DNA of 64,000 bases, from positions 1 through 64,000 of the forward strand of contig JBCBZT010000037.1 of NCBI GenBank assembly GCA_039815185.1, in the 5' to 3' direction. The translations under genes and the position numbers were made by a program. Within the stretch, counting starts at the first letter, position 1. The number at the start of each line of letters is the position of its first letter. This document shows, in pieces, positions 36,458 through 56,145 of this stretch. The notes beneath the pieces were generated by a model, which saw only the letters and a list, made by a program, of their open reading frames with translations, searched no databases and was not told where the DNA came from. The stretch is from Cyanobacteria bacterium P01_A01_bin.123 (GTDB lineage: Bacteria; Cyanobacteriota; Cyanobacteriia; Phormidesmidales; Phormidesmidaceae).

Positions 36458-36721
36458 CTACTTCACCGAAAAAGGAGTGGCGTAAATTCGAGCAATGCTA
36501 AATTCCAGTGTGGTCGTCTGGTTCTCCCAGGCGAGTCTTTCAATCACAATATCAGCATGGGCCAGCCAGTTTTCGTCCACGAGGCAGATAGGCACATCCA
36601 ACGGAAAGAGACGATACCCCTCTTTTTGAACTTGATGGCAGGCACCTATTGCTAATAAGGCAGGATAGCCCTGGGTAGGCTTGAGTTTTAGGATGCTGTT
36701 GATTTCGCAGGGCATTCCCAT
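36458..36721 (-). CDS. DUF2584-like small protein
   Basis: MGMPCEINSILKL...KEGYRLFPLDVPI motif. Confidence 0.7.
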   Translation of the reverse strand: MGMPCEINSILKLKPTQGYPALLAIGACHQVQKEGYRLFPLDVPICLVDENWLAHADIVIERLAWENQTTTLEFSIARIYATPFSVK

Positions 36722-36825
36722 GGGCGATCGCGCTGAATGGTGAGGTCAAGGGTGCTTAAGCGGTCAACATTTACCACACCGCTAGCATCATGTATAGCAG
36801 TAGCCACAAAGCTTTGTGCGCTACC

Positions 36826-36893
36826 GCGAGCCAGATTGCTTGTGGACTAAGCATCCTGGCGATACTCGGTGCATTAAGCAATCTGGCCAGCGC
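36826..36893. repeat. Long imperfect hairpin immediately 3' of guaD
   Basis: GCCAGATTGCTT...AAGCAATCTGGC arms with further imperfect pairing; a second palindrome CACAAAGCTTTGTG at 36805-36818. Confidence 0.55.
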
Positions 36894-36902
36894 CATATCT
36901 CC

Positions 36903-38252
36903 TTAAGACCGCTCATAGGCCAACTCTCCTAAAATATAAGTCGCCTGCACGGCACGATCATCCCCCATCATCACCAATGAAAAGGCCCGATCTGCCAGTT
37001 CCTTTAGAGAACTTGGGGGTGAGGGGGTGTTGCGAAAGGCCATCAGCGGCGTCGCGCGCGGATCGAGCACGATAAAGTCTGCCGCTTTACCGACATCAAA
37101 ACTGCCAATAGTGTCATCCAGATAGAGTGCCCTCGCGCCGCCCAGGGTCGCTAGAAACAAAGCTTTAAAAGGGGAAAGCTTTTGTCGGCGCAGCTGCGCC
37201 ACTTTGTAAGCCTCATTAGCGGTTTGCAGGATGGAAAAGCTCGTTCCTGCGCCAACATCTGTCCCTAGGCCAACTTTGACGGGGTGCTCTGTTGATTTTG
37301 CCTGCTCTAGTTTGAACAGACCGCTACCGAGAAACAAATTTGAGGTCGGGCAAAAAGCAATGGCTGCCTGGGCCTCCGAAAGCCGTTGAAATTCGGCATC
37401 AGTGAGTTGAACCCCGTGGGCAAAGACCGATCGCGCTTTCACCAGCCCCGCCTGATCGTAAGCATCAAGATAGCCCTGGCAATCTGGAAAAAGCTGTTTC
37501 ACCCAGGCCACTTCATCCACGTTCTCACAAAGATGGGTGTGCAGATAGACGTCTGGAAACTCCGCCAACAGCTGCCCCGCTAACCGCAATTGTTCATCGG
37601 TGGAGGTAATTGCAAAACGAGGCGTGACCGCATAACGCAAGCGTCCCTGCTTATGCCATTTCTGAATCAGCGCCTTAGACTCCTGATAAGACGACACCGC
37701 TGAGTCACAGATAAAGTCTGGTGCGTTGCGATCCATCATTACCTTGCCCGCAATCATGCAGAGGTTGCGATGCTCGGCAGCCTCAAAGAAGGCATCCACA
37801 GACTGCGGAAACACTGAGGCAAATACCAGCGCGGTGGTCGTACCATTCCGCAGCAGTTCATCTAGAAAGATCTCCGCCACCTCACGGGCGTAGGCCTTGT
37901 CTTCAAATTTGCGTTCTGTGGGGAAGGTGTACTGATTGAGCCACTCCAGCAGTTGTTCGCCATAGGCTGCAATCATCCCAGTTTGGGGATAGTGAATATG
38001 GGTATCGATAAATCCCGGTAGGATCAACCGTTCGGGATAGACCGTCGTGGGCACCTCGCCATACTCGGCTTGCAGCTCGGCATAGGCTCCAAAGGCCTTG
38101 ATCTTGCCATCCGCCAGCACCATCAGTCCATCGGCACAATAACGGACGCTGTCTTCTTCAGACACATAAAAGGGATCGTCTACAAAATCTAGAAACGATC
38201 CGCGAATGGCTTTGAGGCGATGCTGACCCGATTGGCTTGCTAGAAAGGGCAT
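36903..38252 (-). CDS. guaD: Guanine deaminase (ATG 38252 likely; ORF extends to 38324 through a repeat tract)
   Basis: PGFIDTHIHYPQ, AYGEQLLEWL..YTFP.E, YAVTPRFA, HTHLCEN, CPTSNLFLGSG and GTDVGAG. Confidence 0.96.
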   Translation of the reverse strand: MPFLASQSGQHRLKAIRGSFLDFVDDPFYVSEEDSVRYCADGLMVLADGKIKAFGAYAELQAEYGEVPTTVYPERLILPGFIDTHIHYPQTGMIAAYGEQLLEWLNQYTFPTERKFEDKAYAREVAEIFLDELLRNGTTTALVFASVFPQSVDAFFEAAEHRNLCMIAGKVMMDRNAPDFICDSAVSSYQESKALIQKWHKQGRLRYAVTPRFAITSTDEQLRLAGQLLAEFPDVYLHTHLCENVDEVAWVKQLFPDCQGYLDAYDQAGLVKARSVFAHGVQLTDAEFQRLSEAQAAIAFCPTSNLFLGSGLFKLEQAKSTEHPVKVGLGTDVGAGTSFSILQTANEAYKVAQLRRQKLSPFKALFLATLGGARALYLDDTIGSFDVGKAADFIVLDPRATPLMAFRNTPSPPSSLKELADRAFSLVMMGDDRAVQATYILGELAYERS

Positions 38253-38259
38253 CTGAGGA

Positions 38260-38307
38260 GGGGGGAACAGGGGGGATGGGGGGATAGGGAGCTTGGGAGC
38301 AGGGGGG
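38260..38307 (+). repeat. G-rich short tandem repeat tract (STRR-like)
   Basis: GGGGGGAACAGGGGGGATGGGGGGATAGGGAGCTTGGGAGCAGGGGGG, with six G-runs. Confidence 0.7.
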
Positions 38308-38354
38308 ATGAGAAAAAGAGTCATCCACTCTCATCCTCCCATGCATGGCTTCTA

Positions 38355-38675
38355 CTAGCTGCCCTGGTAGGACTGTTGCTCGCTCTGATAGGACTGCTCC
38401 TGCTGGGCATACTGGCTCTCTTGAGTACTGTCTTGGGCAGCAGCCTGATTTGACTGGTTATTGGCGTAGCTATAGTCGCTGGCGTCTTGGGTTTGGCCAT
38501 ACTCAGTTTGACCGCTAGATTGGTCGCCAGATTGGGCATAGGACTGGCTGGCTTGCTGATTTTGGCTGTAGTCTTGAGCACCAGCCGTAGCGGATAGGGG
38601 TGCCCAAAGGACTGTGCTGACTGCGATAAATGCGATCGCGATCGCGACGAATATTCTACGAATCATCTTCTTCAT
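38355..38675 (-). CDS. Secreted Gln/Ser/Tyr-rich low-complexity protein
   Basis: AGGAG RBS; Sec-type signal (MKKMIRR + hydrophobic core + ATA/AGA); mature part dominated by Q, S, Y, A, D, E. Confidence 0.75.
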   Translation of the reverse strand: MKKMIRRIFVAIAIAFIAVSTVLWAPLSATAGAQDYSQNQQASQSYAQSGDQSSGQTEYGQTQDASDYSYANNQSNQAAAQDSTQESQYAQQEQSYQSEQQSYQGS

Positions 38676-38789
38676 ATCTCCTAAGGATTGAATTTGATTA
38701 CACGGATGGGGAATATCGCAACCCGCAGCGTTTTCATTTAAAAACGGATGGCCAATAGTGACCCAAGTAGTAGTGGCTCAAGCCGTAGA

Positions 38790-39887
38790 TCAGTCCACTG
38801 GGGCATCGACTTCTGCACCGTCAGAGCCTGGTACCACAACTTCAACAGTGCCACCCGATTGAGCCCTCAACCCCCGCGTCAAAGTGGCAACCGCTGCGGC
38901 AATCTGCTGCCGCTGATTCACCAAATAGACACTCACCAGCGTCAGGGCAACCCCAATCCACTGGAGTTGAGTCAACTGCTCACCCAAAAACAGATTGCTG
39001 AACAGGAGCGCAAACACAGGGGTCAAGAAGATCAGTGCACTGACGCTAGTCATATTGCCATTGGCCGCGAGATAAAAGAACATGCCGTAGGTCAACGCCG
39101 TTCCGAATACAGTGGCATAGCCGAGGCCGAGCCAATCGCCTGGTAGCAAGTTAGAGACCTGATTGGTTTCCCACAAAACCGACATCACCGCCAGGGGAAT
39201 CCCCCCCAAGATCATGTGCCAGCCCGTGGCCACGATCGGGTCTGCATGACGTTTCACATAGCCAACGATGATCGTGCCTGCTGACATCGACAACGCTGAC
39301 AGCAGCATCAATAATTCACCACTTTGCAGCAGACCGGCGACATCCCAGCCCCCACCCTCAGCACTCTGGAGCCAGCTTCCGAGGGGAATGCCACTCTCCA
39401 TCAGGCTGTAAATCCACGCTTCAGGGAGTCCACACAGACTAATACCGGCAATGCCGATCGCCAAACCCAACCATCCCCACAGCCCAATTAGATTACCAAA
39501 GAGAATCCGGGCCAATAAAGCCACCACGAGCGGTTGAGCATCAATTAAAACCGCACCCAGCCCTGCGCCCGTATTCACCAGTCCAGTGGTCAGCAGCCCT
39601 TGGAACATGGCCCCATCCACTAGGGCAAATAGGCCAATCCACAGCCAGGCCTTCCACGTTTTAGGCTGGGGCAACTTTAAAGCTGCCGCCACAATTAGCG
39701 TCAAAATACCGGCGGGTAGCAACCGAAATGCCGCTAAAAATAGGGGCGATGTGTGAGGAATGATGAATTTCATCGCCACCATCGCCGTCCCCAGAAAGAA
39801 GAATGGCGCGACTAGAAAGATAGGCGATTTCGCCAAATCGGACTTCTGAATCTGCATAGGCGTGCGTGGGTTATCGTCTGTGGGCAT
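38790..39887 (-). CDS. EamA/DMT family transporter
   Basis: About 10 TM helices in two EamA repeats; PFFFLGTAMVAMK, QPL.VALLA and LIFLTPVFALLF. Confidence 0.92.
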   Translation of the reverse strand: MPTDDNPRTPMQIQKSDLAKSPIFLVAPFFFLGTAMVAMKFIIPHTSPLFLAAFRLLPAGILTLIVAAALKLPQPKTWKAWLWIGLFALVDGAMFQGLLTTGLVNTGAGLGAVLIDAQPLVVALLARILFGNLIGLWGWLGLAIGIAGISLCGLPEAWIYSLMESGIPLGSWLQSAEGGGWDVAGLLQSGELLMLLSALSMSAGTIIVGYVKRHADPIVATGWHMILGGIPLAVMSVLWETNQVSNLLPGDWLGLGYATVFGTALTYGMFFYLAANGNMTSVSALIFLTPVFALLFSNLFLGEQLTQLQWIGVALTLVSVYLVNQRQQIAAAVATLTRGLRAQSGGTVEVVVPGSDGAEVDAPVD

Positions 39888-39984: not shown

Positions 39985-40006
39985 TGTATACTGTATTTTG
40001 TATACA
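39985..40006. promoter_or_regulatory. Putative GntR operator upstream of the EamA gene
   Basis: TGTATACTGTATTTTGTATACA: three GTATAC-like units with 7-bp period. Confidence 0.6.
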
Positions 40007-40059: not shown

Positions 40060-41166
40060 CTATCTGGTGGCGCAGGGTTGGGTCAGATTTTGCAGGGAGA
40101 GTGAGACGGGCTGGGCAGCGGTTGGTCGAGGGTCTCGGTTCGTTCGAGACTGCTCTATCTCGCCATGAGCTTTCAACAGAGCTGCTACTTTTTTGCGAAT
40201 CATGATGCCGGGACGATCGGTAAACATGTGTTCTTCTCGGCTGGGATGCAGGGGTACATCGTAGTCGGTTGACTCTAGAATGCGTTTGTCTTCTAGGGTG
40301 ACGGCGCGATCAAAGGCAATCACGTCATCCGCAGGGGTATCTACTTCGGTATCGTTGCGGACGCAAAACTGCACCATCTGTGACCAGGTATCGCTAATCG
40401 GAGTCATCGTATTGACCACGATGTGAACCAAGCCATTGGGATAGGTAATTTTCAGCTTGATGGTAAAGGGCATCAACCAGTCCATGGCTAGTGTGCGCAG
40501 GGTCTGTGCCTCAGACATTTTGAGATTTTGTTGCTGCAGAGCTGGGTTAACGACGCCTAGGGTGCCATAGACATGAATTCCCCAGTCTGTTTCAGTAATC
40601 TCCAGTTCGTCTGGGGTAGGGTGATCTCCACTGCCAAAGGTTTCAGTGTGCACAAAGGTAGGATGGGCCAGATCCAACTCGTTTTCCATCACGCGCAGTC
40701 CGGCACACTGCCAGGGTTCATAGAATTCTTGAATCAGACGGTAGTCCGGATCGCTGGCCTCACTAATTTCGGGAATGTCGATCAGCGGCTCATCGAGACA
40801 CACCCAGATATAGCCATAGCGTTCGGCACAGCGATAGGATTCAACCCGATAGTTCGCCGGAACCTTGCCGTCGTCTTTGAGCTGAGGCACCCGAACACAA
40901 GTTCCAGCGGCATCAAACTCCCAACCGTGATAAGGACAGCAAATGCGACCCGCCTCGACCCGCCCCAATGAAAGCTTCGCGGTGCGGTGACAGCAGCGAT
41001 CGCGCACCGCCGCCGGACTCCCCTGCTGATCTAGCCAAAGCACGAGGGGTTCGCCCAATAGTTCAAAGGCTTGCGGCCCCGCCATGAGATGCTGGCGGGG
41101 CATCACAGGATACCAAAAGCGACGGAATACGGGCTGCTGAGTGACTAACATAATGGGTTGATCCAA
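40060..41166 (-). CDS. Rieske non-heme iron oxygenase alpha subunit (VanA/NdmA/HpxD class)
   Basis: Rieske CCHR...CPYHGW; mononuclear Fe motif ENELDLAHPTFVH; C-terminal EDKRILES. Confidence 0.92.
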   Translation of the reverse strand: MDQPIMLVTQQPVFRRFWYPVMPRQHLMAGPQAFELLGEPLVLWLDQQGSPAAVRDRCCHRTAKLSLGRVEAGRICCPYHGWEFDAAGTCVRVPQLKDDGKVPANYRVESYRCAERYGYIWVCLDEPLIDIPEISEASDPDYRLIQEFYEPWQCAGLRVMENELDLAHPTFVHTETFGSGDHPTPDELEITETDWGIHVYGTLGVVNPALQQQNLKMSEAQTLRTLAMDWLMPFTIKLKITYPNGLVHIVVNTMTPISDTWSQMVQFCVRNDTEVDTPADDVIAFDRAVTLEDKRILESTDYDVPLHPSREEHMFTDRPGIMIRKKVAALLKAHGEIEQSRTNRDPRPTAAQPVSLSLQNLTQPCATR

Positions 41167-41184
41167 GAAAGCTTCTCTGCATTC

Positions 41185-41199
41185 TGTATACAGTACACA
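41185..41199. promoter_or_regulatory. Putative GntR operator upstream of the Rieske oxygenase
   Basis: TGTATACAGTACACA, one mismatch to TGTATACNGTATACA. Confidence 0.65.
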
Positions 41200-41252: not shown

Positions 41253-42215
41253 CTACTCCCCATCTCCCCCTGCCTCCCGCCTAACTTGAATCAACTCTGC
41301 ACAGATACTGACGGCAATCTCCCCTGGCGTTAATGCGCCAATCTGAAGGCCGATTGGCGCATGCAGACTATCTAACTGGGCATCTGATATGCCTTGCTCC
41401 CGCAGCGATCGCAGTACAATTTGAACCCGCTTTTGAGAGCCAATCATGCCGATGTAGCGACAGGCGATGTTCTGCTCAAGAATGCTGGCTAAGGCAGCTA
41501 GATCGAAAGGATATCCCCGCGTGACTAATGCCACATACAGTGCTGGATATTGACTGACTTGTTGCAGTACCTGGTCAATGGCGGTGGTAAAGATGAAGTT
41601 GGCTTGCGGATAGAGATCAGGATTGGCAAACTGCGATCGCTCATCTTGAATCGCAATTTGAAATCCGGCTAGGTGCGCGACCTTTGCCAGGGCTTCGCCG
41701 ACATGTCCTGCCCCTACGATCAACAGCAGCGGCGGCGGCGTCAAACATTCAATCAAGGCTGTCGGGGTGAGTTGTCTGTTAACTGCCACCCGCACCGCTG
41801 GCCCCATGATTGGCGTCTCTTCAGTTGAGAATGGCGTAATGAGTTGAAGGCTTTGCCCCTTTTGAAGCGCTAGCACAATTGATTCAGCTAAATTGAGCGC
41901 CTCAGGGCCTGACCAGCGTTCTAACCAAAGGCTCATTTGACCGCCACAAATGCCTTCTTTTAAGGCGTTAACCTCTCCGGTTAAGTCGATATGAGCCCGT
42001 TGTTTTTGGCCCGTTTCTAGTAGCGATCGCCCCTGTGCAATCATTTTGGCTTCACCTGCACCGCCACCGATGGTGTCAAAGATCCAGTCTGCCCCAATCA
42101 GCATTTTCGCCCCGACTTCTCTGGGAACGGAGCCCTTGGTCTCGATGACAGTAGCGATAACGACGGGTTGCGATCGCAGCTTTTCAGCCAATTTTTGATA
42201 GAGGGCAATGGTCAT
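41253..42215 (-). CDS. xdhC: XdhC/CoxI family Moco-insertion accessory protein
   Basis: GSVPREVGAKM, TIGGG, ICGG, GAGHVG, YIGMIGS and LHAPIGL.IGA.TP.EIAVSI. Confidence 0.93.
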   Translation of the reverse strand: MTIALYQKLAEKLRSQPVVIATVIETKGSVPREVGAKMLIGADWIFDTIGGGAGEAKMIAQGRSLLETGQKQRAHIDLTGEVNALKEGICGGQMSLWLERWSGPEALNLAESIVLALQKGQSLQLITPFSTEETPIMGPAVRVAVNRQLTPTALIECLTPPPLLLIVGAGHVGEALAKVAHLAGFQIAIQDERSQFANPDLYPQANFIFTTAIDQVLQQVSQYPALYVALVTRGYPFDLAALASILEQNIACRYIGMIGSQKRVQIVLRSLREQGISDAQLDSLHAPIGLQIGALTPGEIAVSICAELIQVRREAGGDGE

Positions 42216-42285: not shown

Positions 42286-42693
42286 CTAGCCATTCTCCAC
42301 CCAGTTTTCAAGCACGATGCCAGGGTAAACGCGAAAATCGTCGAGATTGTTCGTGACCAGTGTCAAATTTAGACTTTTGGCATGACTAGCAATCAACTTA
42401 TCTAGTGCATCCCGCCGTCGTTCCGGGGCGGCAGATCTAACCAATGCATACGCCTTAGCTGCCAATTGCTCAAAGGGAAGCGCTGGAATAATTTTGAGCA
42501 ACGCATCTAAAGCCAGGCGATTCTGCTTCTGCGTTACTGCACTACTTTTGTAAACGCCATACTCCAACTCGGCCAGGGTAATTGCTGAAATGACAACTTC
42601 CCCCTGGCGACATTCGGCAAAACGACGAGCGACGGAGGGCGGCTGTTGCTTAATGATGTAAATACAGATGTTCGTATCGAGCATGTATTTCAA
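42286..42693 (-). CDS. vapC: VapC PIN-domain toxin
   Basis: YMLDTNICI, ISAITLAELEYG, DKLIASHA and LVTNNLDDF. Confidence 0.95.
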   Translation of the reverse strand: MKYMLDTNICIYIIKQQPPSVARRFAECRQGEVVISAITLAELEYGVYKSSAVTQKQNRLALDALLKIIPALPFEQLAAKAYALVRSAAPERRRDALDKLIASHAKSLNLTLVTNNLDDFRVYPGIVLENWVENG

Positions 42694-42923
42694 AGCGCTT
42701 CTCGCTCCTGGGTCGTCTGTTCTGGGCGCCCCTCAGCCATGAAATCATCAGAAAAGGCTGCAAACAGCTCTAAAACATTGGTGAGAGGAGTCCCTATGGG
42801 GGTAATGATCAAGCGATCGCCCTGGCGCTCAATTTCATACTCGATATCTAATTGCTCGAACTGTAACTCTTTCGGAATTCGAACAGCTTGTGAATTACCA
42901 CTTTGAAAAACACGAGTACGCAT
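42690..42923 (-). CDS. vapB: VapB antitoxin (AbrB/MazE/VagC type)
   Basis: RVFQSGNSQAVRIPKE; ATGA overlap with vapC. Confidence 0.95.
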   Translation of the reverse strand: MRTRVFQSGNSQAVRIPKELQFEQLDIEYEIERQGDRLIITPIGTPLTNVLELFAAFSDDFMAEGRPEQTTQEREAL

Positions 42924-42944
42924 AAGTTCACATCAACAAAAATC

Positions 42945-42961
42945 GTATATACAGTATATAC
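42945..42961. promoter_or_regulatory. Palindromic operator upstream of vapBC, overlapping a TATACT -10 on the minus strand
   Basis: GTATATAC-A-GTATATAC perfect palindrome. Confidence 0.65.
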
Positions 42962-43043: not shown

Positions 43044-43086
43044 AAAAAATGGCCGTTTAGCCCCATCAAAGCTAAACGGCAAAAAA
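43044..43086 (-). terminator. Intrinsic terminator after the xdhAB-ABC operon
   Basis: GCCGTTTAGC-N9-GCTAAACGGC hairpin followed by a T-run on the minus strand. Confidence 0.8.
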
Positions 43087-43116: not shown

Positions 43117-43989
43117 CTAGAAAGCAGGCAAAGGCGGTAGAGGTTCACCCAACCACGTTTGAGAAAAGTCATCTAACTCACCCCCCAAACGCTTGTGGTA
43201 AATAAAGGTATTGACCCACTGCAACAGGTCAACTTCACCCCGGCGCAAACCAATATGGGCCGGAGATTCTTTGATAATAAATTTACTCTCAATATTTTTA
43301 TCGGGATTATTTTGTGCTAGCTCAGCTGCCACAACATTACCTGTAGCGATCATATCAACTTGACCAGAAATTAAAGACGACGCGGTCAAGCTATTATCGG
43401 CAAAGCGTTCAATCTCAACATCATCAGAGACCGCATCAGTGAGTTCAAGATCTTCTAACGTACCCTGGGTAACGCCGATTTTATAACCGCCCAGATCTGC
43501 GAACTCGCTCACATCAGAAATCTCTGTCGGCCCGTAAAGCCCAGAGAAGAAGGGTGCATAGGGAATCGAGAAGAAAATTGACTTAGCCCGCTCAGGATTG
43601 GCTCCCATACTGGAGATCACCAAATCGGCTTTGTTGGTTTGTAAAAAAGGAATGCGATTATCGCTGGTCACTGGCACCAACTCCAATTCGACACCCAGAT
43701 CTTCTGCCAGTAGTGTCGCGACATCAATATCATATCCCTCTAAATTGCCGCTGGCATCAACTGAACCGAAGGGGGCAAAATCCTGGGGCACAGCAATTTT
43801 GATGGTGCCTACTTCAATAATGTTATCTAAACTAGAGACCACTACTTCATCTTGTGCTGTAACGCTGGGCGTACCGCCGCCATTAACACAAGCAACCGCA
43901 ACTAACGAAAAGATACAGGCAAAACAAGCGATTAAAACGGTCTGTAACCACTTCTTTGGCATTGAAATACGCATAGATACTATCCTCAT
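43117..43989 (-). CDS. Polar amino-acid-type ABC transporter substrate-binding lipoprotein
   Basis: Lipobox-like VAC, IAVPQDFAPFG, GYDIDVA, NRIPFLQ.NKADLVISS and ERAK.I.FS.PY. Confidence 0.92.
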   Translation of the reverse strand: MRIVSMRISMPKKWLQTVLIACFACIFSLVAVACVNGGGTPSVTAQDEVVVSSLDNIIEVGTIKIAVPQDFAPFGSVDASGNLEGYDIDVATLLAEDLGVELELVPVTSDNRIPFLQTNKADLVISSMGANPERAKSIFFSIPYAPFFSGLYGPTEISDVSEFADLGGYKIGVTQGTLEDLELTDAVSDDVEIERFADNSLTASSLISGQVDMIATGNVVAAELAQNNPDKNIESKFIIKESPAHIGLRRGEVDLLQWVNTFIYHKRLGGELDDFSQTWLGEPLPPLPAF

Positions 43990-44046
43990 TGAATATGCTC
44001 AAATTAACAGGCATCGGGTTGATCGAAGTATCCGAGAATACATTTT

Positions 44047-44694
44047 TTATTGCCGCGCTAAGACTTTTTCCAATTTTCGGCTCCAGGCAGAGATGGGAAA
44101 GCAGATTCCAAAATAAATCACCGCAGTCAAAAAGTAGACAAAGAAGGGCTGAAAAGTGACATTAGTGATGTTGGTGGCAGAACGAGCTAGCTCGACAAAA
44201 CCAATGGCAGAAGCCAAAGAAGTTCCCTTAATCACCTGGGCTAAGAAACCAACCGTGGGAGCGATCGCCAGCCGTAGCGCTTGGGGCAAAATAACCAGTC
44301 CCAATTGTTGAAAATAGTTGAGACTCAAGGATTTAGAAGCTTCCCACTGACCTCGAGGAATAGCTTCTACGGCCCCACGCCAAATGTCGCCTAGAAAGGC
44401 ACTCGTAAAAGTCGTTAAGGCAATAGTGGCCGATGTCCAGGGGCTGAGTTCTATCCCTAAAATACTCAAACCAAAGAAGGCCAGAAGAAATTGAATTAAC
44501 AGCGGCGTACCCTGGACAATTTCTGTATATAGCCAACTCAAATATTTAATCGGTTTAAACTTCGAAATTCTCATCAAGAGCAACAAACCGCCTGCAATAC
44601 CACCACAAACAAAGGCGACAGCAGACAACAAGAGCGTCCAGCGGGTAGCCCACAAGAGCGTATATAGAATTTCGAGATGGCTAAAATCTCTCAT
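44047..44694 (-). CDS. Amino-acid ABC transporter permease (HisM/GlnP type; ATG 44694, ORF extends to 44748)
   Basis: QGTPLLIQF, EAA loop RGAVEAIPRGQWEASKSL, ILPQA and KGTSL. Confidence 0.93.
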   Translation of the reverse strand: MRDFSHLEILYTLLWATRWTLLLSAVAFVCGGIAGGLLLLMRISKFKPIKYLSWLYTEIVQGTPLLIQFLLAFFGLSILGIELSPWTSATIALTTFTSAFLGDIWRGAVEAIPRGQWEASKSLSLNYFQQLGLVILPQALRLAIAPTVGFLAQVIKGTSLASAIGFVELARSATNITNVTFQPFFVYFLTAVIYFGICFPISAWSRKLEKVLARQ

Positions 44695-44698
44695 GGAC

Positions 44699-47710: not shown

Positions 47711-49106
47711 CGCTAAATTCAACAAAAAACTTCTCAAACAAATTAGCCACCAGTCGATTGCGATAGTCTGCACTGGCACGGAGGTCAGATAGCGGCGTAA
47801 ATGTACTGAGGAGCTGCGGTTTCACAGCCTGCACCGTTTCCAGCGTCCACGGTTGCCCCACCAGCATTTCTTCAATCGCGATCGCCCGAATTGGCGTCGC
47901 CGCCACCCCGCCATAGGCTAACCGGGCCAGCACAATGGTGCGGTGCTCATCCAAGTCAATCGTGAAGGTGGCGGCGACGATACTGATGTCATCCGTCCCC
48001 CGCTTACCCACTTTGTAGGATTGGCTCAGCCGTCGAGTCGCTCCCGGTGCGATCGCTTTGAGAATCGTCACTGTGACAATCACCTCGTCCGGTCGGCGGA
48101 TGGTTTGACGATAGCCGGTGAAAAAGTCTGCGATCGCCACTGTTCTGGTTCCAGCCGGACTCGCTAACATCAGCGTGGCATCCAACGCCAGCAAAACCGG
48201 GGGTAAATCGCCAATCGGAGAAGCCGTGCCGATATTGCCACCCAGCGTGGCGCGATTCCGCACCTGGCGCGCTGCGAACCAGTGCAGCATCTCATCTAAA
48301 GCAGGGAAAGCCCCTTGGAGAGAGACTTTGAAGTGGCTGAGCGGGACGGCTGCACCAATGGTCACCTGAGAATCGGTTTGCCTCAAAACTCGCAGCTCTT
48401 GAACCGCTTCCAGAGAGATCAAAACCGGATACTGTTGACGCCGATGGGTGAGTTCTAAGCCTAGATCCGTCGCGCCTGCCACCAGGGTTGCATCGGGATG
48501 CGTTTGCATCAGTGCCAACACATCACTCAACTGGGTGGGGCGATAAAACTGCTGCCCGTTGCCTTGATATTCCAGCGCTGGGAGGGGGTCAACCTCGGCC
48601 TGTTCTAACTGCGCCTGAAACGGATCTTGCGGATCGGGCAGGGACAAACTTGCCAACGCTCGGCGGATCGGCAAATACCCCGTGCAGCGACAGAGATTGC
48701 CCTCAACCGCTAAATCATCTGGGTTGCCATCGTAATAGGCGGCAAACATGCTCATGATGAAGCCGGGGGTGCAGTAGCCACATTGGGAACCGCCCAGTTC
48801 AACCATTTTTTCCTGCACGGGATGCAGCTTGCCGTTGGCCACCCCTTCAACGGTGATAATCTGCCGACCCGCTACGGATCCTAGAGGGATCAGACAGCTA
48901 TTCATGGCTTGATAATGTAGGCCACCATCCGCGCGATCGCCTACCACCACGACAGTGCAAGCCCCGCAGTCACCATCGGCGCAACCTTCCTTAGTGCCGA
49001 CCCGTCCGCTTTGACGCAGGTACTCTAGCAAGGTGAGGGTGGGGGAAATGTTCTCAAGCCGAGTCTGCTCTCCGTTGATGGTTAGGGTTAAGGGCATGTT
49101 GAGCAT
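47703..49106 (-). CDS. xdhA: Xanthine dehydrogenase small subunit (2x[2Fe-2S] + FAD)
   Basis: GTKEGCADGDCGAC, SQCGYCTPGF, GNLCRCTGY, AGATD, RNRATLGGN..ASPIGD and KR..DDIS. Confidence 0.96.
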   Translation of the reverse strand: MLNMPLTLTINGEQTRLENISPTLTLLEYLRQSGRVGTKEGCADGDCGACTVVVVGDRADGGLHYQAMNSCLIPLGSVAGRQIITVEGVANGKLHPVQEKMVELGGSQCGYCTPGFIMSMFAAYYDGNPDDLAVEGNLCRCTGYLPIRRALASLSLPDPQDPFQAQLEQAEVDPLPALEYQGNGQQFYRPTQLSDVLALMQTHPDATLVAGATDLGLELTHRRQQYPVLISLEAVQELRVLRQTDSQVTIGAAVPLSHFKVSLQGAFPALDEMLHWFAARQVRNRATLGGNIGTASPIGDLPPVLLALDATLMLASPAGTRTVAIADFFTGYRQTIRRPDEVIVTVTILKAIAPGATRRLSQSYKVGKRGTDDISIVAATFTIDLDEHRTIVLARLAYGGVAATPIRAIAIEEMLVGQPWTLETVQAVKPQLLSTFTPLSDLRASADYRNRLVANLFEKFFVEFSDG

Positions 49107-49339: not shown

Positions 49340-50773
49340 TTACCCAAAGCGGACGGTGGTAAACACGAATCTGCCAATGAAAATGGCGGCGAGAATCCAG
49401 GTGATGACGGAGACTTCACGGGCGCGGCCACTGACGGCTTTCGCAAAGGGATAGAGAATCATACCCGCAGAGAGCCCGGCGGCGATGGAAAAGCCGAGGG
49501 GAATAAAGAAGATGGTGACAAAAGCAGGAATCGCTTCGGTCAGGTCGCCCCAGCGAATGCTGGAGACGCTGGACATCATCAACACACCGACAATTAACAG
49601 GGCAGGGGCGGTGGCAAAGGCGGGAATGGCTTCAAAAATGGGCACAAATAGCAGCGCCAGGACAAACATCCCGGCAGCAACCACAGCGGTGAGTCCAGTG
49701 CGGCCCCCTTCCGCGACACCAGAGGCGGATTCGGCAAAGGTGGTGACGGTGGAAGTGCCCATGACGGCCCCGGCTGTAGTAGCGATCGCATCGGCAGACA
49801 ATGCCTGATTAGCCCGGGGCAATTCGCCGTTGTCGTCGATATAGCCCGCCTGGGTACCGACGCCCATCAGGGTGCCAATCGTGTCGAACATGTCCACAAA
49901 TAAGAAGACCAGCAGAATCGCCAGGAAATCAATAATATTGCTGCCGTTGATGCCGCTGAACCCGACAAATGCCTGACCAAATAAATTAGCGGGAAACACC
50001 GGAATCGCAATAATCCCGCTGGGGGCATTGGCAACCCCAAAGATCCAGCCCAGGATGGCGGTTCCAGCAATGCCCCAGAGCAGTGCCCCTTTGATCCGCC
50101 GGATCATGAACATGGCGGAAATAAAAATACCGAAGGTGGCCAGCAGTGTAGCGGGTTCTCGAAAACTGCCGAAGGTGGTTTTGGTGACTTCGCTGGCGAC
50201 GATCAGCCCAGCGCCGCCAACCTCAGTGGCACCGCTGAGGCCGATGTAAGCCAGGAACATGCCAATGCCGACGGTGGTTGAGGCTTTGATACAGGCGGGC
50301 ACGGCTGCAATCAGGTGACGGCGGACATCAGTGACGGTCAAGGCAATGAAGATCAGCCCCTCAATGAGGACACAGGCCAAGGCGACCCGCCAGTCAATGC
50401 CCAAACCCAACACAACGGAATAGGCAAAGAAAGCGTTGGTGCCCATGCCGGGGGCAAGGACGAAGGGATATTTGGCGTAGAGACCCATGACCAGGGTGCC
50501 GATAGCGGCGGTCACGCCTGTAACCACGACCAGTTCTCGAAATAGGTCGCCGGACTCGTTTAAAAACACCGCGTCTGACATGATCAGCGGATGCACGACG
50601 AGGACGTAGGCCATGGTCATGAAGGTGGTTAACCCGGCCAGGATCTCGGTGCGGAAGTTGGTTTTGTAGTAGTCGAAGTTGAAATATTCAGCCACCTTCG
50701 CCTGCCAGCCGGAATAGGGCGGTGGGGAAGCGCCGGGGGGTTTTTGTTCAAGTTTGATCGGACTGTGACTCAT
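49340..50773 (-). CDS. NCS2/AzgA-like purine permease
   Basis: RTEILAGLTTFMTMAY, LAPGMGTNAFF, DMFDTIGTL and ESASGVAEGGRTGL (AzgA/PbuG/GhxP subfamily). Confidence 0.95.
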   Translation of the reverse strand: MSHSPIKLEQKPPGASPPPYSGWQAKVAEYFNFDYYKTNFRTEILAGLTTFMTMAYVLVVHPLIMSDAVFLNESGDLFRELVVVTGVTAAIGTLVMGLYAKYPFVLAPGMGTNAFFAYSVVLGLGIDWRVALACVLIEGLIFIALTVTDVRRHLIAAVPACIKASTTVGIGMFLAYIGLSGATEVGGAGLIVASEVTKTTFGSFREPATLLATFGIFISAMFMIRRIKGALLWGIAGTAILGWIFGVANAPSGIIAIPVFPANLFGQAFVGFSGINGSNIIDFLAILLVFLFVDMFDTIGTLMGVGTQAGYIDDNGELPRANQALSADAIATTAGAVMGTSTVTTFAESASGVAEGGRTGLTAVVAAGMFVLALLFVPIFEAIPAFATAPALLIVGVLMMSSVSSIRWGDLTEAIPAFVTIFFIPLGFSIAAGLSAGMILYPFAKAVSGRAREVSVITWILAAIFIGRFVFTTVRFG

Positions 50774-50877: not shown

Positions 50878-50892
50878 TGCATACTGTATACA
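50878..50892. promoter_or_regulatory. Putative GntR operator upstream of the NCS2 permease
   Basis: TGCATACTGTATACA, one mismatch to TGTATACNGTATACA. Confidence 0.65.
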
Positions 50893-50924: not shown

Positions 50925-50951
50925 CATTCTCTATCCGTGCCACATAAAACG

Positions 50952-51945
50952 TTACGGGTGAGACTGTGCTGACCTCGCTGCAAAACGGCTACTCAAGCCC
51001 AGTTGCTGCTTCAGCGCTTCAGGAACGTTTTGTGCGGTATTAATTCCTTCGACCTGTTGCCAATCAGTCTGTTCATCCCAAGAAATTTTGTTAAGTCTCG
51101 CCTTAGCAAGTCTCGCCCCAAAAAGTCTCGCTCCAAAAAGGTTTGCTCTAGAAAGGTTCGCAGCAGCAAGGTTAGCCCTATCAAGTCTCGCCCCAGAAAG
51201 GTTAGTCCCAACAAGTCTCGCCTCAGTAAGGTTAGCCTCAGAAAGTCTTGCATTAGCAAGTCTCGCCCCAAAAAGGTTAGCCCCAGAAAGTTTAGTCCCA
51301 ACAAGTCTCACCTCAGAAAGGTTAGCCCTAGAAAGGTTAGCCCCAACAAGTCTCGCCCCAGAAAGGTTCGTTCTACAAAGATCCTGAAAGGACAGAATAC
51401 AATTACCCAAATTCAGATGATTTAAACAGCTAAACGCAACTGGATTTTCAACGCTCACTCGCTGCCCCTGGAGGGTTTTTAGCCAAGTGCCAAATGCTTC
51501 GAGGCTCGGCCAATCGATCGTGGACAATGCCTGACTAACCCCGACACAACTACTGAGGGCTGCGAGTAGCGCTTCGGAAGCATTGCGAGCCTGTTTCGTT
51601 TCCTCGATAAACTTGGGGCGAGGGCTCAACTCTTCCATCGGCATACTGTGGCGCAATAGATAGCCGATCAAATCGCATAGGGTTTGTTGCCACTGCCACA
51701 CTTGCGCTTCAGGCTGTAACTTGACTTCATCTCGCAGAAAGCTGAGTAGATAGTCATCCATCGCCATTGGGCCACACAAAGATTGCCCAGCGCTTCAGAC
51801 ATTCTTTTTCGTCCCAGCCAATATCGGGATTATCTCGATGCTGGGTCAACTGCTGCTGAATCAGCTTCAGTTCCAACACCATGCGCCGGGCAGTCAGATA
51901 CTCTCCAAAACTCTTGTGCGTAAACTCAAACGTGGCTTCGCTGCC
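50952..51945 (-). pseudogene. 5'-truncated, frameshifted NACHT-pentapeptide repeat gene
   Basis: Pentapeptide repeats (A.L..)n in ORF 50952-51779. A shifted frame upstream (51945-51781) reads GSEATFEFTHKSFGEYLTARR...KRWAI, the NACHT winged-helix FxFxHxSFxEY motif. Frameshift near 51779; an in-frame stop lies immediately upstream. Confidence 0.8.
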
Positions 51946-52025: not shown

Positions 52026-52265
52026 TTAAGACTGATGATAAATCTTATCGAGCCAATCCCGCTGTTCTTCACTCGGCGGCAGATACGCATAAAACCTAGC
52101 CTTAGCGCTATCGCGATAATAAGACGAGTTGCTCTCTAGCTGAGCAAAGACCTGCGGTGGATGCACCATAAAACGAGCAAAGGCTTTCCAGCCCGTCCGC
52201 AGAGACTGCCACAGCGTTCGAGAACGATTGACATGAGTCTGATTGGTGTTGGGTTGATTTTGCAT
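52026..52265 (-). CDS. Small hypothetical protein downstream of gntR
   Basis: 79-aa ORF; C-terminal SEEQRDWLDKIY resembles a cyanobacterial small-protein motif. Confidence 0.5.
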   Translation of the reverse strand: MQNQPNTNQTHVNRSRTLWQSLRTGWKAFARFMVHPPQVFAQLESNSSYYRDSAKARFYAYLPPSEEQRDWLDKIYHQS

Positions 52266-52370: not shown

Positions 52371-53066
52371 TCATTCCCCTGGCTGAAAACTCCGAATCTC
52401 TTGCACCACCCGTCCCTTACTCGCCAATAAATGAACCCGCACCGCCTCCGTCGCCACCGCCGCATCCCGCTTAGCGATCGCTTCATAGATTTGACGATGC
52501 TCCAACCGAATCTCCAACACGCCTGGATTATGCTGTAGCGTCTGAATCCGGAGCAGCGCCATCGCATCAAACAGCTGGTCGAGCAGCGACACCAACCGCT
52601 TGTTACCCGAACTTTCAGCAATTAAATGATGAAACTGATAGTCCAAATCCAACCGTTGTAACAGCATCTGTAATTGAGAATCCTGCGGATCGCGGGCCTC
52701 AGCCTGAATCACATACTGCTCTAAACCCTTGAGCTGATCACCACTGGCATGCTCACAAGCCCCCGCCACAGAAAGCTGTTCTAACGCTAGACGGCAGTCA
52801 TACAGCTCAGCCGCATCCGCTGCAGATATCGTCGTGACCCGTAACCCCCCATTCGTATCAGCCGTCACCAGCCCTTCCTTCTGAAGCTGGCGTAAGGCTT
52901 CTCGCAAAGGTGTCCGACTCACATTCAGCCACTCAGTCAGTTGAGTTTCAATCAACCGACTCCCTGGCACAAATTCACCCGTTAAAATGCCGGTGCGCAA
53001 AGCCGTGTAAACCTGCTCAGAGAGAGATTTATTACGTCGAATCGGGGGGCGAGAAGATAAAGTCAC
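52371..53066 (-). CDS. GntR family transcriptional regulator (FCD/FadR-VanR type)
   Basis: SLSEQVY..LR.GI..GEF.PG.RL.E..L...LNVSRTPLREAL wHTH; FCD D..FH...SGN...EH..I. Confidence 0.95.
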   Translation of the reverse strand: MTLSSRPPIRRNKSLSEQVYTALRTGILTGEFVPGSRLIETQLTEWLNVSRTPLREALRQLQKEGLVTADTNGGLRVTTISAADAAELYDCRLALEQLSVAGACEHASGDQLKGLEQYVIQAEARDPQDSQLQMLLQRLDLDYQFHHLIAESSGNKRLVSLLDQLFDAMALLRIQTLQHNPGVLEIRLEHRQIYEAIAKRDAAVATEAVRVHLLASKGRVVQEIRSFQPGE

Positions 53067-53253
53067 AAACGATTACTGGGGTTAAATGGCAGGTCAGACG
53101 AACGCTTCTGTTTGGGTTCAGTAGGGCTACGAATCGCCACGGCAAAAGGGGCTGACAGTCAAACTTTCGCGCTCGAAAATCTAACATCCAAAATTGGCAT
53201 CACAAAATTGGTATCAGCAGTTGGATCCGCAAAGACGTATTATCATTCTAATC

Positions 53254-53270
53254 GTGTATACCGTATACAC
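53254..53270. promoter_or_regulatory. Perfect palindromic operator in the gntR/SH3-operon divergent region
   Basis: GTGTATAC-C-GTATACAC. Confidence 0.75.
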
Positions 53271-53336
53271 AGCAACTCATACTGTAATCAGGGCGACTGC
53301 CTGACTTAGGCCAGCCCAGATACACTGCCAGTCAAT

Positions 53337-53849
53337 ATGACACATAGACTCCCTATGGTGATTAACAGGCGATTATTGAGCGTTGTGGCGCTGGCGGCGA
53401 TCGCACTCATGACGCTAGTCTCTTACCCCACAGCAAGCTGGGCCGCCGACTATCAAGGCAATCAGGCTATCAATCAGCCCGCGAGACTCGTGTCCCCCGA
53501 GCCGGAGACTGAAATTGCCATCTATCCCAAGCCAGAGCCGCGCCAACGTCGCATTGGGTATGGCATCGGCGGCGATCGTGTCACGGTTTTAGAGCAGGTA
53601 GGCAGCAATCAAGGCACCACCTGGAACCACATTCGTTTCGATGCGCCCCCCTACGCCGAGGGCTGGGTGCAGGAAGAATTTGTATCGTTTCAAGCGGCAG
53701 ATTCAGCTAATCCAGGTCAGCAGGTCGCGAATCCCACGGCTAATCGGGGCGATCGTTATTTAGGCGATCGCCAATCGTCATCCGACAGCCAGGGACGCGC
53801 TCAACCCTATTCGCAGCAAGATCAAAATCAAAATCAAAACCAGTACTAA
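53337..53849 (+). CDS. Secreted bacterial SH3-domain protein with Gln/Asn-rich tail
   Basis: Signal peptide ending ASWA; GYG..GDRVTVLEQ...WNHIRF....EGWV SH3b pattern. Confidence 0.8.
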   Translation: MTHRLPMVINRRLLSVVALAAIALMTLVSYPTASWAADYQGNQAINQPARLVSPEPETEIAIYPKPEPRQRRIGYGIGGDRVTVLEQVGSNQGTTWNHIRFDAPPYAEGWVQEEFVSFQAADSANPGQQVANPTANRGDRYLGDRQSSSDSQGRAQPYSQQDQNQNQNQY

Positions 53850-54526
53850 TGGCTGACACCGACGTGAGTTCGCTGGCTGGTGCCAGCCTGGTGGTAGAAC
53901 ATACCGTCCCCAGCGGCAAGGGGCTGGCCTTTCGGTGGTGGCACTCAAAAGTGACGCGAACCGCCAGACGCTTCAAGGGCTACATCCGCACTGACCTATA
54001 TTCCCCCGTCAAAGGCTCACAGTCCGATCAGCCGTTGAAGTGGTATTCCATCATCCACTTTGACTCCCCCAACCAGCTCAACCAATGGCTCAAATCGCGC
54101 GATCGCGAGGCATTAATCGAAGCTGGGCGCAAAATTTTTGCTTCCTACCAGTTCATGTCCTTTTCCACAGGGCTCGAAGGCTGGTTTTCCCGCAAGACCG
54201 GCACAGAACAGATGGGCTTCGGCCCGCCCGCCTGGAAGCAAAACGCAGCGGTTGTGCTGGGCTTATATCCTACCGTCATGATTCAGTCGGCGCTTTTTGC
54301 GGCCTTGGGTCTGATGCAATCTTGGTCGCTGCCCAATGCCATGATTGTGAATAACATCATCACCTCATCCCTGTTGACCTGGGCCGTCATGCCCCTGGTC
54401 ACACGGCTGCTGGGCTTTTGGCTCCAACCCGCCCATCAACCCACTTCTTGGAAAACCGATGCGCTGGGAACTGGCATCATTGTCGCCGCCCTGGGCCTGA
54501 TGGTGCTGGTCTTTAATGGGTTTTAG
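53849..54526 (+). CDS. ABM-superfamily (COG3224-like) protein with C-terminal membrane domain
   Basis: F.GY, IHFDS...L..WL.S..R, TGLEGWF and PPAWKQ...LGLYP; TAATG overlap with the SH3 gene. Confidence 0.75.
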   Translation: MADTDVSSLAGASLVVEHTVPSGKGLAFRWWHSKVTRTARRFKGYIRTDLYSPVKGSQSDQPLKWYSIIHFDSPNQLNQWLKSRDREALIEAGRKIFASYQFMSFSTGLEGWFSRKTGTEQMGFGPPAWKQNAAVVLGLYPTVMIQSALFAALGLMQSWSLPNAMIVNNIITSSLLTWAVMPLVTRLLGFWLQPAHQPTSWKTDALGTGIIVAALGLMVLVFNGF

Positions 54527-54531
54527 GCTAG

Positions 54532-56145
54532 ATGAGTAGGCACAGGAGCAGCATCTACAAATTTTGGGGGCAATTACAGTTCACGATCTGGGATAGGTTG
54601 CAATCAATCCTCAAAATTAGCCTATGGGGATTTATGGGTGGGGTTATTCTCGGCTGGTTTTGCGTTGGGGGGCTGGATGCGATCGCGGGAAGCAACCCTC
54701 CAATTACAGCAAACAGTCCTCCCATTACAGAAAGCCGCCCTCCGCAACCATCCCTCAAACAGATTCGGGTCACAACCCTAGCCGATAAAGGGATGGGATC
54801 GCTGCGTTGGGCGATCGCCCAAGCCAATGCAGCCCCCGATGATGATTTGATTGATTTAAGCAGCGTTCAAGGGGCAATCGCCCTGCAAAGTCCCCTACCT
54901 ACGATTACCAGCAACCTGACGCTGGTCGGCAATGGCCACACGACCATTAGCGGCAATAAACGCCATCGCGTCCTACAAATCAAGGGGGGGGATGTCACGA
55001 TTCGCGACCTCACCCTGGCGGACGGCCTCGCCCAAGGCACCGATGGAATTGACGGCGCAGGGGGCAGTGCAGGCATGGGCGGCGGCCTATTGATTAATCA
55101 GGGGGCAGTGCGCCTGAGTCGCGTCAAGTTTGTCGACAACCAGGCCATTGGCGGTAGCGGTAGCCCGCATATCCCGCCTGCCCACCGTCAGATTTCCCAA
55201 GTCCAGATTCCCCAGGTTCAGATTCAAAATCACGACGACCGCTTGACGGTGAATCGAGGGGCAATTCTTGATGTTGATGGCATCAGTCTCTCCCTAGCAG
55301 AGACGCTAGACAGTCTTCCCCTGACTGCGGAAATCAGCCGTACTAAGGAAAAAATTGACGCCAATCGCGGCGCGATCGCAGGGGTTAGCGGCATCGGCAT
55401 CAACGGCATTGGCAGCATTGCCTTTGGCGGTGGGGGCGGTTTTGGCGGCTTTGGCAATGCGGGCAATGGCGGCAACGGCGGCAATGGCGGAACAGATAGC
55501 GGCAACGGCGGCAACGGCGGCGATGGGGGCAACGGCGGCGTCGGCATTTTTGGCAGCTTTGCCCGCTGGGAAGATCAAGGCAGCATCGGCACAATCGTCT
55601 TTGGTGGTGGGGGCGGCTTTGGCGGCTTCGGGAATGCAGGCAACGGGGGCAATGGCGGCAATGCTACGGTCGCGATCGCCAATGGCGGCAATGGCGGCAA
55701 TGGCGGCAATGGCGGCTTCGGGGGCGGCGGGGGCGCTGGGGGCTTTGGCGGCAGGGGGGGCAGTTACAGCGGTGATGCAGGCCAGCCGGGTCAACCGGGG
55801 TCTGGGGGCTTTGGCGGTGGGGATGGCGGCATGGGCTTTGGCGGCAGCGGCGGGGGCTTTGGCGGGGCAATCTTGATCCGCTCAGGTCACCTCGTTTTGA
55901 ATCAGGTGCAGTTTATTCGCAATGCCGCGATCGCTGGACCAGGCCCCTCGCCAGGTCAGGGAAAAGGCGGCGCTATTTTCATTACGCCAAGCCCGATAGC
56001 AGATCATCCACCCAGCGTTCTCGCACTGGGCAACCCAATAGCGTTCATCGATAACGTAGCATCCGACGCAGCTGGGCTACCGACCGATAACGATGATATC
56101 TATGGTGCGCTTGCTTCGACGGGAAGGCTTCGCCAGCAGCAATAG
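54532..56145 (+). CDS. Glycine-rich (GNG repeat) surface/secreted protein with CSLREA-like N-terminal domain
   Basis: N-terminal hydrophobic segment; VTTLADKGMGSLRWAIAQAN; GGG-type beta-helix motifs; duplicated FGGGGGFGGFGNAGNGGNGGN. Confidence 0.8.
   Translation: MSRHRSSIYKFWGQLQFTIWDRLQSILKISLWGFMGGVILGWFCVGGLDAIAGSNPPITANSPPITESRPPQPSLKQIRVTTLADKGMGSLRWAIAQANAAPDDDLIDLSSVQGAIALQSPLPTITSNLTLVGNGHTTISGNKRHRVLQIKGGDVTIRDLTLADGLAQGTDGIDGAGGSAGMGGGLLINQGAVRLSRVKFVDNQAIGGSGSPHIPPAHRQISQVQIPQVQIQNHDDRLTVNRGAILDVDGISLSLAETLDSLPLTAEISRTKEKIDANRGAIAGVSGIGINGIGSIAFGGGGGFGGFGNAGNGGNGGNGGTDSGNGGNGGDGGNGGVGIFGSFARWEDQGSIGTIVFGGGGGFGGFGNAGNGGNGGNATVAIANGGNGGNGGNGGFGGGGGAGGFGGRGGSYSGDAGQPGQPGSGGFGGGDGGMGFGGSGGGFGGAILIRSGHLVLNQVQFIRNAAIAGPGPSPGQGKGGAIFITPSPIADHPPSVLALGNPIAFIDNVASDAAGLPTDNDDIYGALASTGRLRQQQ

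Follow-up and report, generated by a model that had tools for sequence, protein, structure and literature searches.

The window analyzed here, the first 64 kb of contig C23 in a cyanobacterial genome of 8.09 Mb (99.99% complete, 5.99% contaminated), contains between positions 36458 and 56145 a cluster of purine-related genes around a GntR-type regulator, among them the gene for a Rieske oxygenase that is a candidate for the conversion of xanthine to urate. Close relatives of the encoded proteins come from records labelled as filamentous cyanobacteria of the Phormidesmis/Leptolyngbyaceae type. The 29 proteins encoded in and around this region were scanned against the Pfam and NCBIfam cut-offs, and the palindrome TGTATACNGTATACA, referred to as the box, was mapped as a putative operator. 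The purine genes (XDH, xanthine dehydrogenase), transporters, regulator and sites are as follows.

36903–38324, minus strand: guaD, guanine deaminase (TIGR02967, 587.8 bits, cut-off 375.4)
38790–39887, minus strand: EamA/DMT transporter, presumed regulon copy (Pfam)
39985–40006: predicted operator array upstream of the EamA gene, boxes at a 7-bp period (motif and score matrix)
40060–41166, minus strand: Rieske non-haem iron oxygenase of clade R2a, predicted xanthine (purine C8) hydroxylase (tree, co-occurrence, neighbours)
41178–41199: predicted operator array 12–33 bp upstream of the Rieske start (in orthologues mostly near −25)
41253–42215, minus strand: xdhC, XDH maturation factor (PF02625 and PF13478)
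42946–42960: palindrome before vapB-vapC-xdhC, either a GntR box or a VapB operator (15.2 bits)
43052–43080, minus strand: terminator-like hairpin, 13 pairs and a T tail, after the binding-protein gene (best of 20 sites in the scan)
43117–45370, minus strand: polar amino-acid-type ABC importer, binding protein and two permeases (Pfam/NCBIfam)
45389–47779, minus strand: xdhB (TIGR02965, 957.7 bits, cut-off 849.5)
47703–49106, minus strand: xdhA (TIGR02963, 498.6 bits, cut-off 467)
49340–50773, minus strand: AzgA-type NCS2 purine permease (PF00860; AZG1 at E 2.5e-72)
50878–50892: predicted operator upstream of the permease-xdhAB-ABC unit (24.6 bits, top genome-wide score)
52371–53066, minus strand: GntR regulator with FCD domain, predicted repressor (PF00392 and PF07729)
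53255–53269: predicted operator, perfect, between the divergent gntR and the SH3-ABM-Gly operon (sole site without mismatch in 8.09 Mb)

The genes named in a preliminary description of this region were found where it had placed them: guaD, xdhA and xdhB exceeded the NCBIfam cut-offs, and the EamA, Rieske/VanA_C, GntR-FCD and DUF2584 assignments were confirmed. The xdhC product contains both XdhC Pfam domains but remains narrowly under the TIGR02964 cut-off (143.8 vs. 161.6 bits), and the ABC importer comprises a binding protein and two permeases but no ATPase encoded within the 64-kb window. A 78% match to the importer ATPase of a related locus sits in another amino-acid ABC operon on contig C43 and may be shared with the importer of the cluster, orthologues of which lie downstream of the box in loci L016, L050, L052 and L188. 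All three matches of the permease among solved structures were AZG1/AZG2. Contig C115 encodes a paralogue of the EamA transporter (60% identical) as well as a second AzgA-type permease without a box (83%; 149785–151290), the latter being either a paralogue or contamination.

The preliminary description had noted one palindrome before several of these units, and the counts bear this out. Six matches with at most two mismatches were present in the window, compared with 0.13 expected, and none of 100 shuffles reached six. All six are intergenic and precede the EamA gene, the Rieske gene, vapB, the permease gene and the divergent gntR/SH3 pair. The whole genome contains 11 such matches, the six in the window including all three with at most one mismatch, and a score matrix trained on 29 palindrome sites from relatives only returned seven genome matches of at least 15 bits in 8.09 Mb, again six of them in the window. 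The only high-scoring box outside the cluster (C5:21932, 16.8 bits) lies before a small ribbon-helix-helix-like gene and is probably unrelated. Where boxes overlap, two or three of them repeat at a period of 7 bp. The palindrome at 42946 was missing before both vapB relatives examined (n=2).

The box also follows the regulator across genomes. In a first sample of 61 genomes (60 others and the source genome), with GntR scored as present at E≤1e-30, the motif (at most one mismatch) occurred in all 26 genomes with GntR vs. 3 of 35 without, and a reversed-pattern control in 4 of 61. Within 350 bp upstream, boxes were found for gntR (30 of 41 orthologues), the Rieske gene (22 of 40), the permease (21 of 27), SH3 (20 of 27) and EamA (10 of 25), some of these loci having also trained the matrix, and for none of 24 guaD and 7 xdhC orthologues. 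Since the box usually lies about 25 bp from the Rieske start, GntR would suit the role of a repressor. Sites that do not adjoin gntR were located in 39 fetched regions, 21 of them by hpxO, hiuH, puuE, pbuX, allantoate amidohydrolase-like or Rieske/xdh genes and the remaining 18 by ABC importers (10), ABM genes (2), sister Rieske genes (1), a MOSC gene (1) or nothing recognisable (4). The neighbours of gntR in relatives are genes of the same kinds as those around the other box sites, and an annotated plasmid of Pseudanabaena ABRG5-3 combines GntR with hpxO, uraD, puuE, uraH and boxes. A GntR-linked, co-regulated purine module, as originally proposed, is thus supported by a shared palindrome that tracks GntR across relatives and lies by purine genes, and the purine genes sharing it very probably form a GntR-bound regulon.

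One observation weighs against this regulon: in the source genome the genes of the lower pathway are scattered (hpxO, uraD, hiuH, puuE, three allantoate amidohydrolase-like genes and urease), and no box precedes them, hpxO, hiuH, uraD and puuE included. No allantoinase AllB exceeded the cut-off in the source genome, in which PuuE is present. Motif scans for ureidoglycine aminohydrolase and NtcA gave nothing, the patterns used being unable to show absence.

The box contains GTA...TAC, so the palindrome might instead be an NtcA site or a chance pattern with the accessory genes as hitch-hikers, which the DUF2584, vapBC and pentapeptide genes indeed appear to be. The NtcA consensus is GTA-N8-TAC; the spacing in the box is GTA-N7-TAC, and the two GTA-N8-TAC matches between 35900 and 56500 (44028 and 52289) do not coincide with the palindrome. 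The motif is missing in 32 of the 35 cyanobacteria without GntR and its count was not reached in any shuffle. Spacing and genome distribution thus speak against NtcA as the owner of the palindrome, and this explanation is hardly credible. Riboswitch control was likewise discarded: Rfam gave only rRNA and tRNA in the window, which includes the 5' part of a 16S rRNA gene at the contig end (1–318) and one tRNA (23061–23133). A sigma-70 promoter scan was uninformative (11 sites vs. 14.5 in shuffles). Another palindrome, TAGTATATACTA, at 56241–56258 upstream of an ABC exporter gene, differs from the GntR box.

Further genes recur under the box in other loci. A DUF1275 gene and a gene of about 207 amino acids (aa) stand beside ABM and pbuX genes (L025, L075, L168, L176 and L180) and are candidate regulon members, and a Pot-like ABC importer recurs with a gene for a stand-alone C-terminal domain of allophanate hydrolase (L042, L050, L057, L062, L064 and source contig C59:57695–60948). 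On source contig C70 (66137–71151, L266) an allantoate amidohydrolase-like gene belongs to the same run of genes as one for a cyanuric acid amidohydrolase over its cut-off, possibly a pathway for triazine-ring nitrogen.

Records labelled Phormidesmis and Leptothoe repeat the gene order guaD-QSY-EamA-Rieske-permease-79aa-gntR-SH3-ABM-Gly; in those labelled Drouetiella, Kaiparowitsia, Pseudanabaena and Chroococcidiopsis the cluster is arranged differently. Conserved loci were counted in two sets, namely the best 80 of 191 ABM relatives with 8-kb flanks, and a pool of 257 loci that includes a few duplicates and was recruited mostly via cluster genes. xdhB was present in 3 and the Rieske gene in 19 of the 80 ABM loci; because of the gene counts in both sets, we regard xdhABC and the ABC importer as add-ons to a core cluster.

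The Rieske oxygenase is 32% identical to Pantoea HpxD and likewise to Pseudomonas NdmA (a plasmid gene labelled from its cluster and its match to a PDB sequence), and among solved structures NdmA matches it best (E 1e-40). An 88-row FastTree places it in a 78-row clade (support 100) apart from HpxD (8 rows) and NdmA/B, and within that clade in a 39-row subclade, R2a (support 89), with the signature ENE[LMF]D[LMTS]AHP. A profile search gave 797 clusters at E≤1e-30, which come without names or context. The Rieske cluster ligands and the 2-His-1-carboxylate site (C58, H60, C77, H80, H168, H173 and D293) were invariant in 21 sequences. The predicted pocket is formed by E163, P169, L226, V250, D286, V289 and T290. 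A study (bioRxiv 2021.12.17.472166) gives the pocket of NdmA as F168, F174, F223, L248, N282, V285 and F286, and that of HpxD (F-F-F-I-N-V-F) shares six of the seven residues with NdmA. The source genome contains a second R2a Rieske gene without a box (77%, C104:24932–26035), either a paralogue or contamination. Sister Rieske clades (ENSFD types) often occur as tandem pairs near TRZ/ATZ amidohydrolases and ABC importers (L093, L076, L251, L256 and L257), with up to seven copies per genome, and likely act on other N-heterocycles.

The distribution of R2a was followed in a second sample of 201 genomes, each at least 95% complete, which overlaps the first. HpxO was encoded in 97 of the 201 genomes overall and in all 28 R2a carriers. 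The 97 comprised one genome with both R2a and HpxD, 27 with R2a only, 36 with HpxD only and 33 with neither (p 2e-6, a value overstated by the kinship of the sampled genomes, as are all co-occurrence p-values here; unfetched low-identity copies of 58% or less were scored as non-R2a). Five genera hold both the R2a-only and the HpxD-only state, and members of the wider clade beyond R2a showed no exclusion of HpxD (p 0.3). In the first sample, R2a was present in 15 of the 25 HpxO genomes without XDH and HpxD and in 2 of the 21 with one of these enzymes. A check of 30 hand-picked genomes (20 R2a carriers, 10 with neither R2a nor HpxD) detected an XDH-family gene (E≤1e-60) in 4 of the 20 carriers vs. 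9 of the 10 others.

The neighbourhoods point in the same direction. A purine neighbour within 5 kb accompanied 35 of 56 R2a proteins vs. 0 of 38 from the sister clades, and 10 of 20 loci fetched by Rieske match alone had one. Gene orders included hpxO-R2a-guaD (L086 and L224) and hpxO-hiuH-R2a (L219). In one genome with neither R2a nor HpxD (G073), the slot between hpxO and guaD that elsewhere holds R2a is taken by a fused Fe-S/molybdopterin enzyme (L258:4497–7520). This protein of about 920–1000 aa is under all family cut-offs, is also encoded in G008, G032 and G194, and is a candidate for a fourth xanthine-oxidising type. Co-occurrence, exclusion and neighbours of R2a together fit a non-orthologous replacement at the xanthine-to-urate step, and R2a probably converts xanthine to urate.

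Several findings, in addition to the kinship of the genomes, weigh against this assignment. The source genome keeps XdhAB together with two R2a copies, three genomes (G013, G179 and G217) carry R2a alongside a known enzyme, and of the 18 R2a genomes in the first sample four are without guaD and one without hpxO. No reductase gene was found in 64 R2a loci, nor was an HpxE-like reductase found in the source genome at E≤1e-15. The window protein keeps one of the seven HpxD/NdmA pocket residues, a divergence that would allow for another purine or another mode of binding, so that the substrate may not be xanthine. Having both R2a and XdhAB might be of use in a mat that is oxic by day and anoxic by night, a split that we propose because the Rieske enzyme needs O2.

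With the pocket in mind, the regulon could be as described and the Rieske enzyme hydroxylate another purine, most likely guanine to 8-oxoguanine, which would then be deaminated to urate, or hypoxanthine only. Acidic pocket residues unlike those of HpxD would agree with this, as would the absence of guaD from some R2a genomes and an 8-oxoguanine deaminase gene, which in L209/L210 stands with R2a under one box and is also present in the source genome; the exclusion with HpxD could be explained by any urate route. R2a, however, is near guaD in 16 of 56 proteins vs. near 8-oxoguanine deaminase in 2 of 56, and the adjoining guaD would compete for guanine, which leaves this reading rather unlikely.

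The preliminary description had also suggested the use of methylpurines, for which the Rieske enzyme would be an NdmA-like N-demethylase feeding methylated purines (e.g. from tRNA turnover) into the xanthine route. NdmA is its best solved match, the Pseudomonas caffeine cluster likewise has a GntR regulator and an NCS2 permease, and XdhAB could take the product here. The identity to HpxD is, however, equal, the protein falls outside the NdmA/B clade with one matching pocket residue, and formaldehyde-removal genes were, like reductase genes, found in none of the 64 R2a loci. An N-demethylase should moreover accompany HpxD or XDH rather than exclude them. Clade, pocket and neighbourhood led us to reject a methylxanthine demethylase as the leading interpretation; it is quite improbable, and the methylpurine idea is unsupported.

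The accessory genes of the cluster are as follows, with signal-like N-termini and hydrophobic segments judged by hydropathy.

38355–38675, minus strand: small Q/S/Y-rich protein (QSY), signal-like N-terminus, conserved between EamA and guaD (hydrophobic segment 8–26)
52026–52265, minus strand: conserved 79-aa open reading frame downstream of gntR (28 of 28 loci with a purine gene)
53337–53849, plus strand: SH3b-domain protein, signal-like N-terminus, Q/N-rich tail (remote methods; in 27 of 80 ABM loci)
53849–54526, plus strand: ABM-barrel protein, C-terminal hydrophobic helices (model pLDDT 81; SnoaB-like matches at E 1e-5)
54532–56145, plus strand: right-handed beta-helix protein split by a glycine-rich insert (Gly), N-terminal hydrophobic helix (in 33 of 80 ABM loci)

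The SH3b, ABM and beta-helix labels have no Pfam match behind them and are supported by remote methods, and the 79-aa frame belongs to no known family. Within 8 kb, 48 of the 80 ABM loci have a purine gene (permeases and Rieske genes counted), as do 35 of the 50 that are at least 12 kb long, and 42 have a box. In the pool of 257 loci, a purine gene is present in 36 of the 45 loci with Gly, 27 of the 30 with SH3 and 17 of the 17 with QSY. The preliminary description had staked its proposal on such linkage recurring in other genomes, and on this genomic point it holds up: SH3, ABM, Gly and QSY genes are conserved with purine genes. Against this stand the 32 ABM loci, full-length ones among them, that show no purine gene. 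Of five distant ABM relatives (25–37%; L115–L119), four are likewise without a purine neighbour. A separate search for the beta-helix gene located it in 7 of 60 other genomes; in five of these it is linked to the regulon, in two it is not.

SnoaB came first among the 111 matches of the predicted ABM fold at E≤0.001, and identity to solved members was 6–17%. Its layout is an N-terminal barrel followed by three helices, two of them clearly hydrophobic, without a signal-like start, and its gene often neighbours permease genes. Because the predicted barrel precedes any hydrophobic segment, the protein is unlikely to be exported; the prediction is instead a membrane-anchored protein whose barrel lies inside the cell. 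For the beta-helix protein, the right-handed beta-helix is supported by a structural match (Z 16.5, with scores falling slowly, root-mean-square deviation 2.6, 178 aligned residues) and, separately, by PMP-like clusters. Foldseek gave no match for it at E≤0.001 and a wide search gave generic beta-helices only, polysaccharide lyases and adhesins being about equally represented. The glycine-rich insert of about 145 residues contains 79 glycines and is modelled at low confidence, and relatives of the protein are often DUF4347 fusions.

We know of no described purine role for the ABM, beta-helix or SH3b types. The preliminary description had proposed that exported proteins help to capture, solubilise or sense extracellular purines; in one such reading the SH3, beta-helix and QSY proteins would do the capturing or dissolving and ABM would be the sensor. 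Conserved linkage and signal-like N-termini would be in keeping with such a system, as would two arrangements in other loci: in L068 the beta-helix gene follows a box where SH3 and ABM are absent, and in L047 one box has an ABM gene on either side. No purine-binding family or fold was matched, however, most regulon-bearing genomes are without these genes (beta-helix in 8 of 61), and the ABM barrel is predicted to be intracellular. Extracellular capture is thus clearly unlikely and, as it stands, unsupported. Very improbable is the more elaborate picture in which filamentous mat cyanobacteria mine solid purine, the co-regulated beta-helix, SH3 and QSY proteins binding guanine or urate crystals from algae and animals and helping to dissolve them, and a new ferredoxin-driven, molybdenum-free family of Rieske enzymes oxidising the import with photosynthetic electrons.

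The remaining genes of the region appear to be bystanders or insertions.

36458–36721, minus strand: DUF2584 gene, bystander (Pfam match)
42286–42923, minus strand: vapBC toxin-antitoxin pair, local insertion (Pfam/NCBIfam)
50952–51779, minus strand: pentapeptide-repeat gene, local insertion (Pfam)

DUF2584, counted as a member in the preliminary description, was found in none of the 257 loci; in 21 of them the sequence extends 700 bp or more downstream of guaD. That description did not list vapBC, the pentapeptide-repeat gene or the 79-aa frame. vapBC was in none of the cyanobacterial loci fetched, and a pentapeptide gene between the permease and the 79-aa frame in 0 of 28. DUF2584, vapBC and the pentapeptide gene were rejected as regulon members, being absent from comparable loci. 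The vapBC insertion separates the ABC importer from xdhC and follows the strong terminator-like hairpin (window 42286–42960), and xdhC may depend on the vapB promoter.

Read from its sequence, the region would encode the upper half of purine breakdown under control of a GntR repressor, with the Rieske enzyme as a xanthine hydroxylase of a third type that does without molybdenum, an interpretation that we consider on balance probable. GntR would occupy the boxes before its own gene, SH3-ABM-Gly, permease-xdhAB-ABC, the Rieske gene and EamA-QSY-guaD until released by a purine catabolite. The AzgA-type permease would import guanine or hypoxanthine, GuaD would convert guanine to xanthine and ammonium, and XdhAB or the Rieske enzyme, the latter probably fed by ferredoxin because no reductase gene adjoins it, would oxidise xanthine to urate. 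HpxO, HiuH, UraD, PuuE, an allantoate amidohydrolase-like enzyme and urease, encoded elsewhere, would release further nitrogen, and EamA might export surplus xanthine or urate. For the accessory proteins our assignment is tentative, with a rather low chance of being right: ABM would be anchored in the membrane and assist purine transport, and the SH3, beta-helix and QSY proteins would be envelope proteins made along with it.

Nearly half of the sampled cyanobacteria encode urate hydroxylase, many of them without either known urate-forming route, and R2a offers a single testable candidate for the missing step in 27 of these genomes. If the assignment is true, R2a would add a third type to the xanthine hydroxylases of bacteria, one whose active site differs. 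The operator provides an immediate handle on the purine regulon and predicts further members, namely several ABC importers, the ABM protein and DUF1275. Research on nitrogen cycling in water is currently concerned with purine cross-feeding and guanine crystals, and it would matter there which cyanobacteria consume purines and how. Overall, the regulon is very probably real, of a known kind and probably undescribed, with a strong candidate xanthine hydroxylase and several truly linked accessory genes.

Among known systems, the accessory proteins resemble the following. The Gly and SH3 proteins have the predicted folds of PMP-like or pectate-lyase-like beta-helices and of SH3b domains; the former shares the right-handed beta-helix of PMP-like autotransporters but is without their C-terminal beta-barrel (no Pfam match, and the model ends in beta-helix strands). 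The ABM protein shares the predicted dimeric alpha+beta barrel of ABM/SnoaB-type proteins but has it fused to membrane helices. Proteobacterial guaD-xdhABC clusters with AzgA/NCS2 permeases are similar in that guaD, xdhA and xdhB over their cut-offs, the xdhC domains and an AzgA-type permease are found here too, whereas here xdhABC looks like an add-on and the core usually holds a Rieske gene instead. The caffeine cluster of Pseudomonas putida encodes the best solved relatives of the Rieske enzyme, NdmA/NdmB, and has a GntR regulator and an NCS2 permease; its GntR is, however, 27% identical and without a double box, and the Rieske proteins differ in clade and pocket.

HpxS, a regulator with a purine/allantoate role, for instance in Klebsiella, is among the closest known counterparts of the GntR protein. 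It belongs to the GntR/FadR subfamily of Gammaproteobacteria and binds sites with a TGTATACA core, also before its own gene (21 HpxS rows in the supplement of PMC4494728). GntR and FCD domains, the core and sites before the regulator's own gene are shared; at the protein level the HpxS data compared were helix-turn-helix strings. HpxS sites are single boxes, which each of the boxes here resembles, whereas two or three overlap here. The best non-cyanobacterial plasmid matches of the GntR protein are 33–37% identical, and the survey passage on the FadR subfamily lists no cyanobacterial member (PMC4494728). A search of the open-licence PMC and bioRxiv literature found no description of this regulon or of the R2a enzyme, and a cyanobacterial purine-catabolism regulon that is HpxS-like with a doubled box is probably undescribed. 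For the enzyme the counterpart is the molybdenum-independent xanthine hydroxylase HpxDE of Klebsiella, which oxidises hypoxanthine and xanthine (PMC7373994). R2a is likewise a Rieske non-haem iron oxygenase with the same predicted pathway step, but is 32% identical, forms a separate clade with a different pocket and has no HpxE-like reductase nearby. Cyanobacteria also hold a true HpxD-like clade (47–49% identity to Pantoea HpxD), which R2a nearly excludes.

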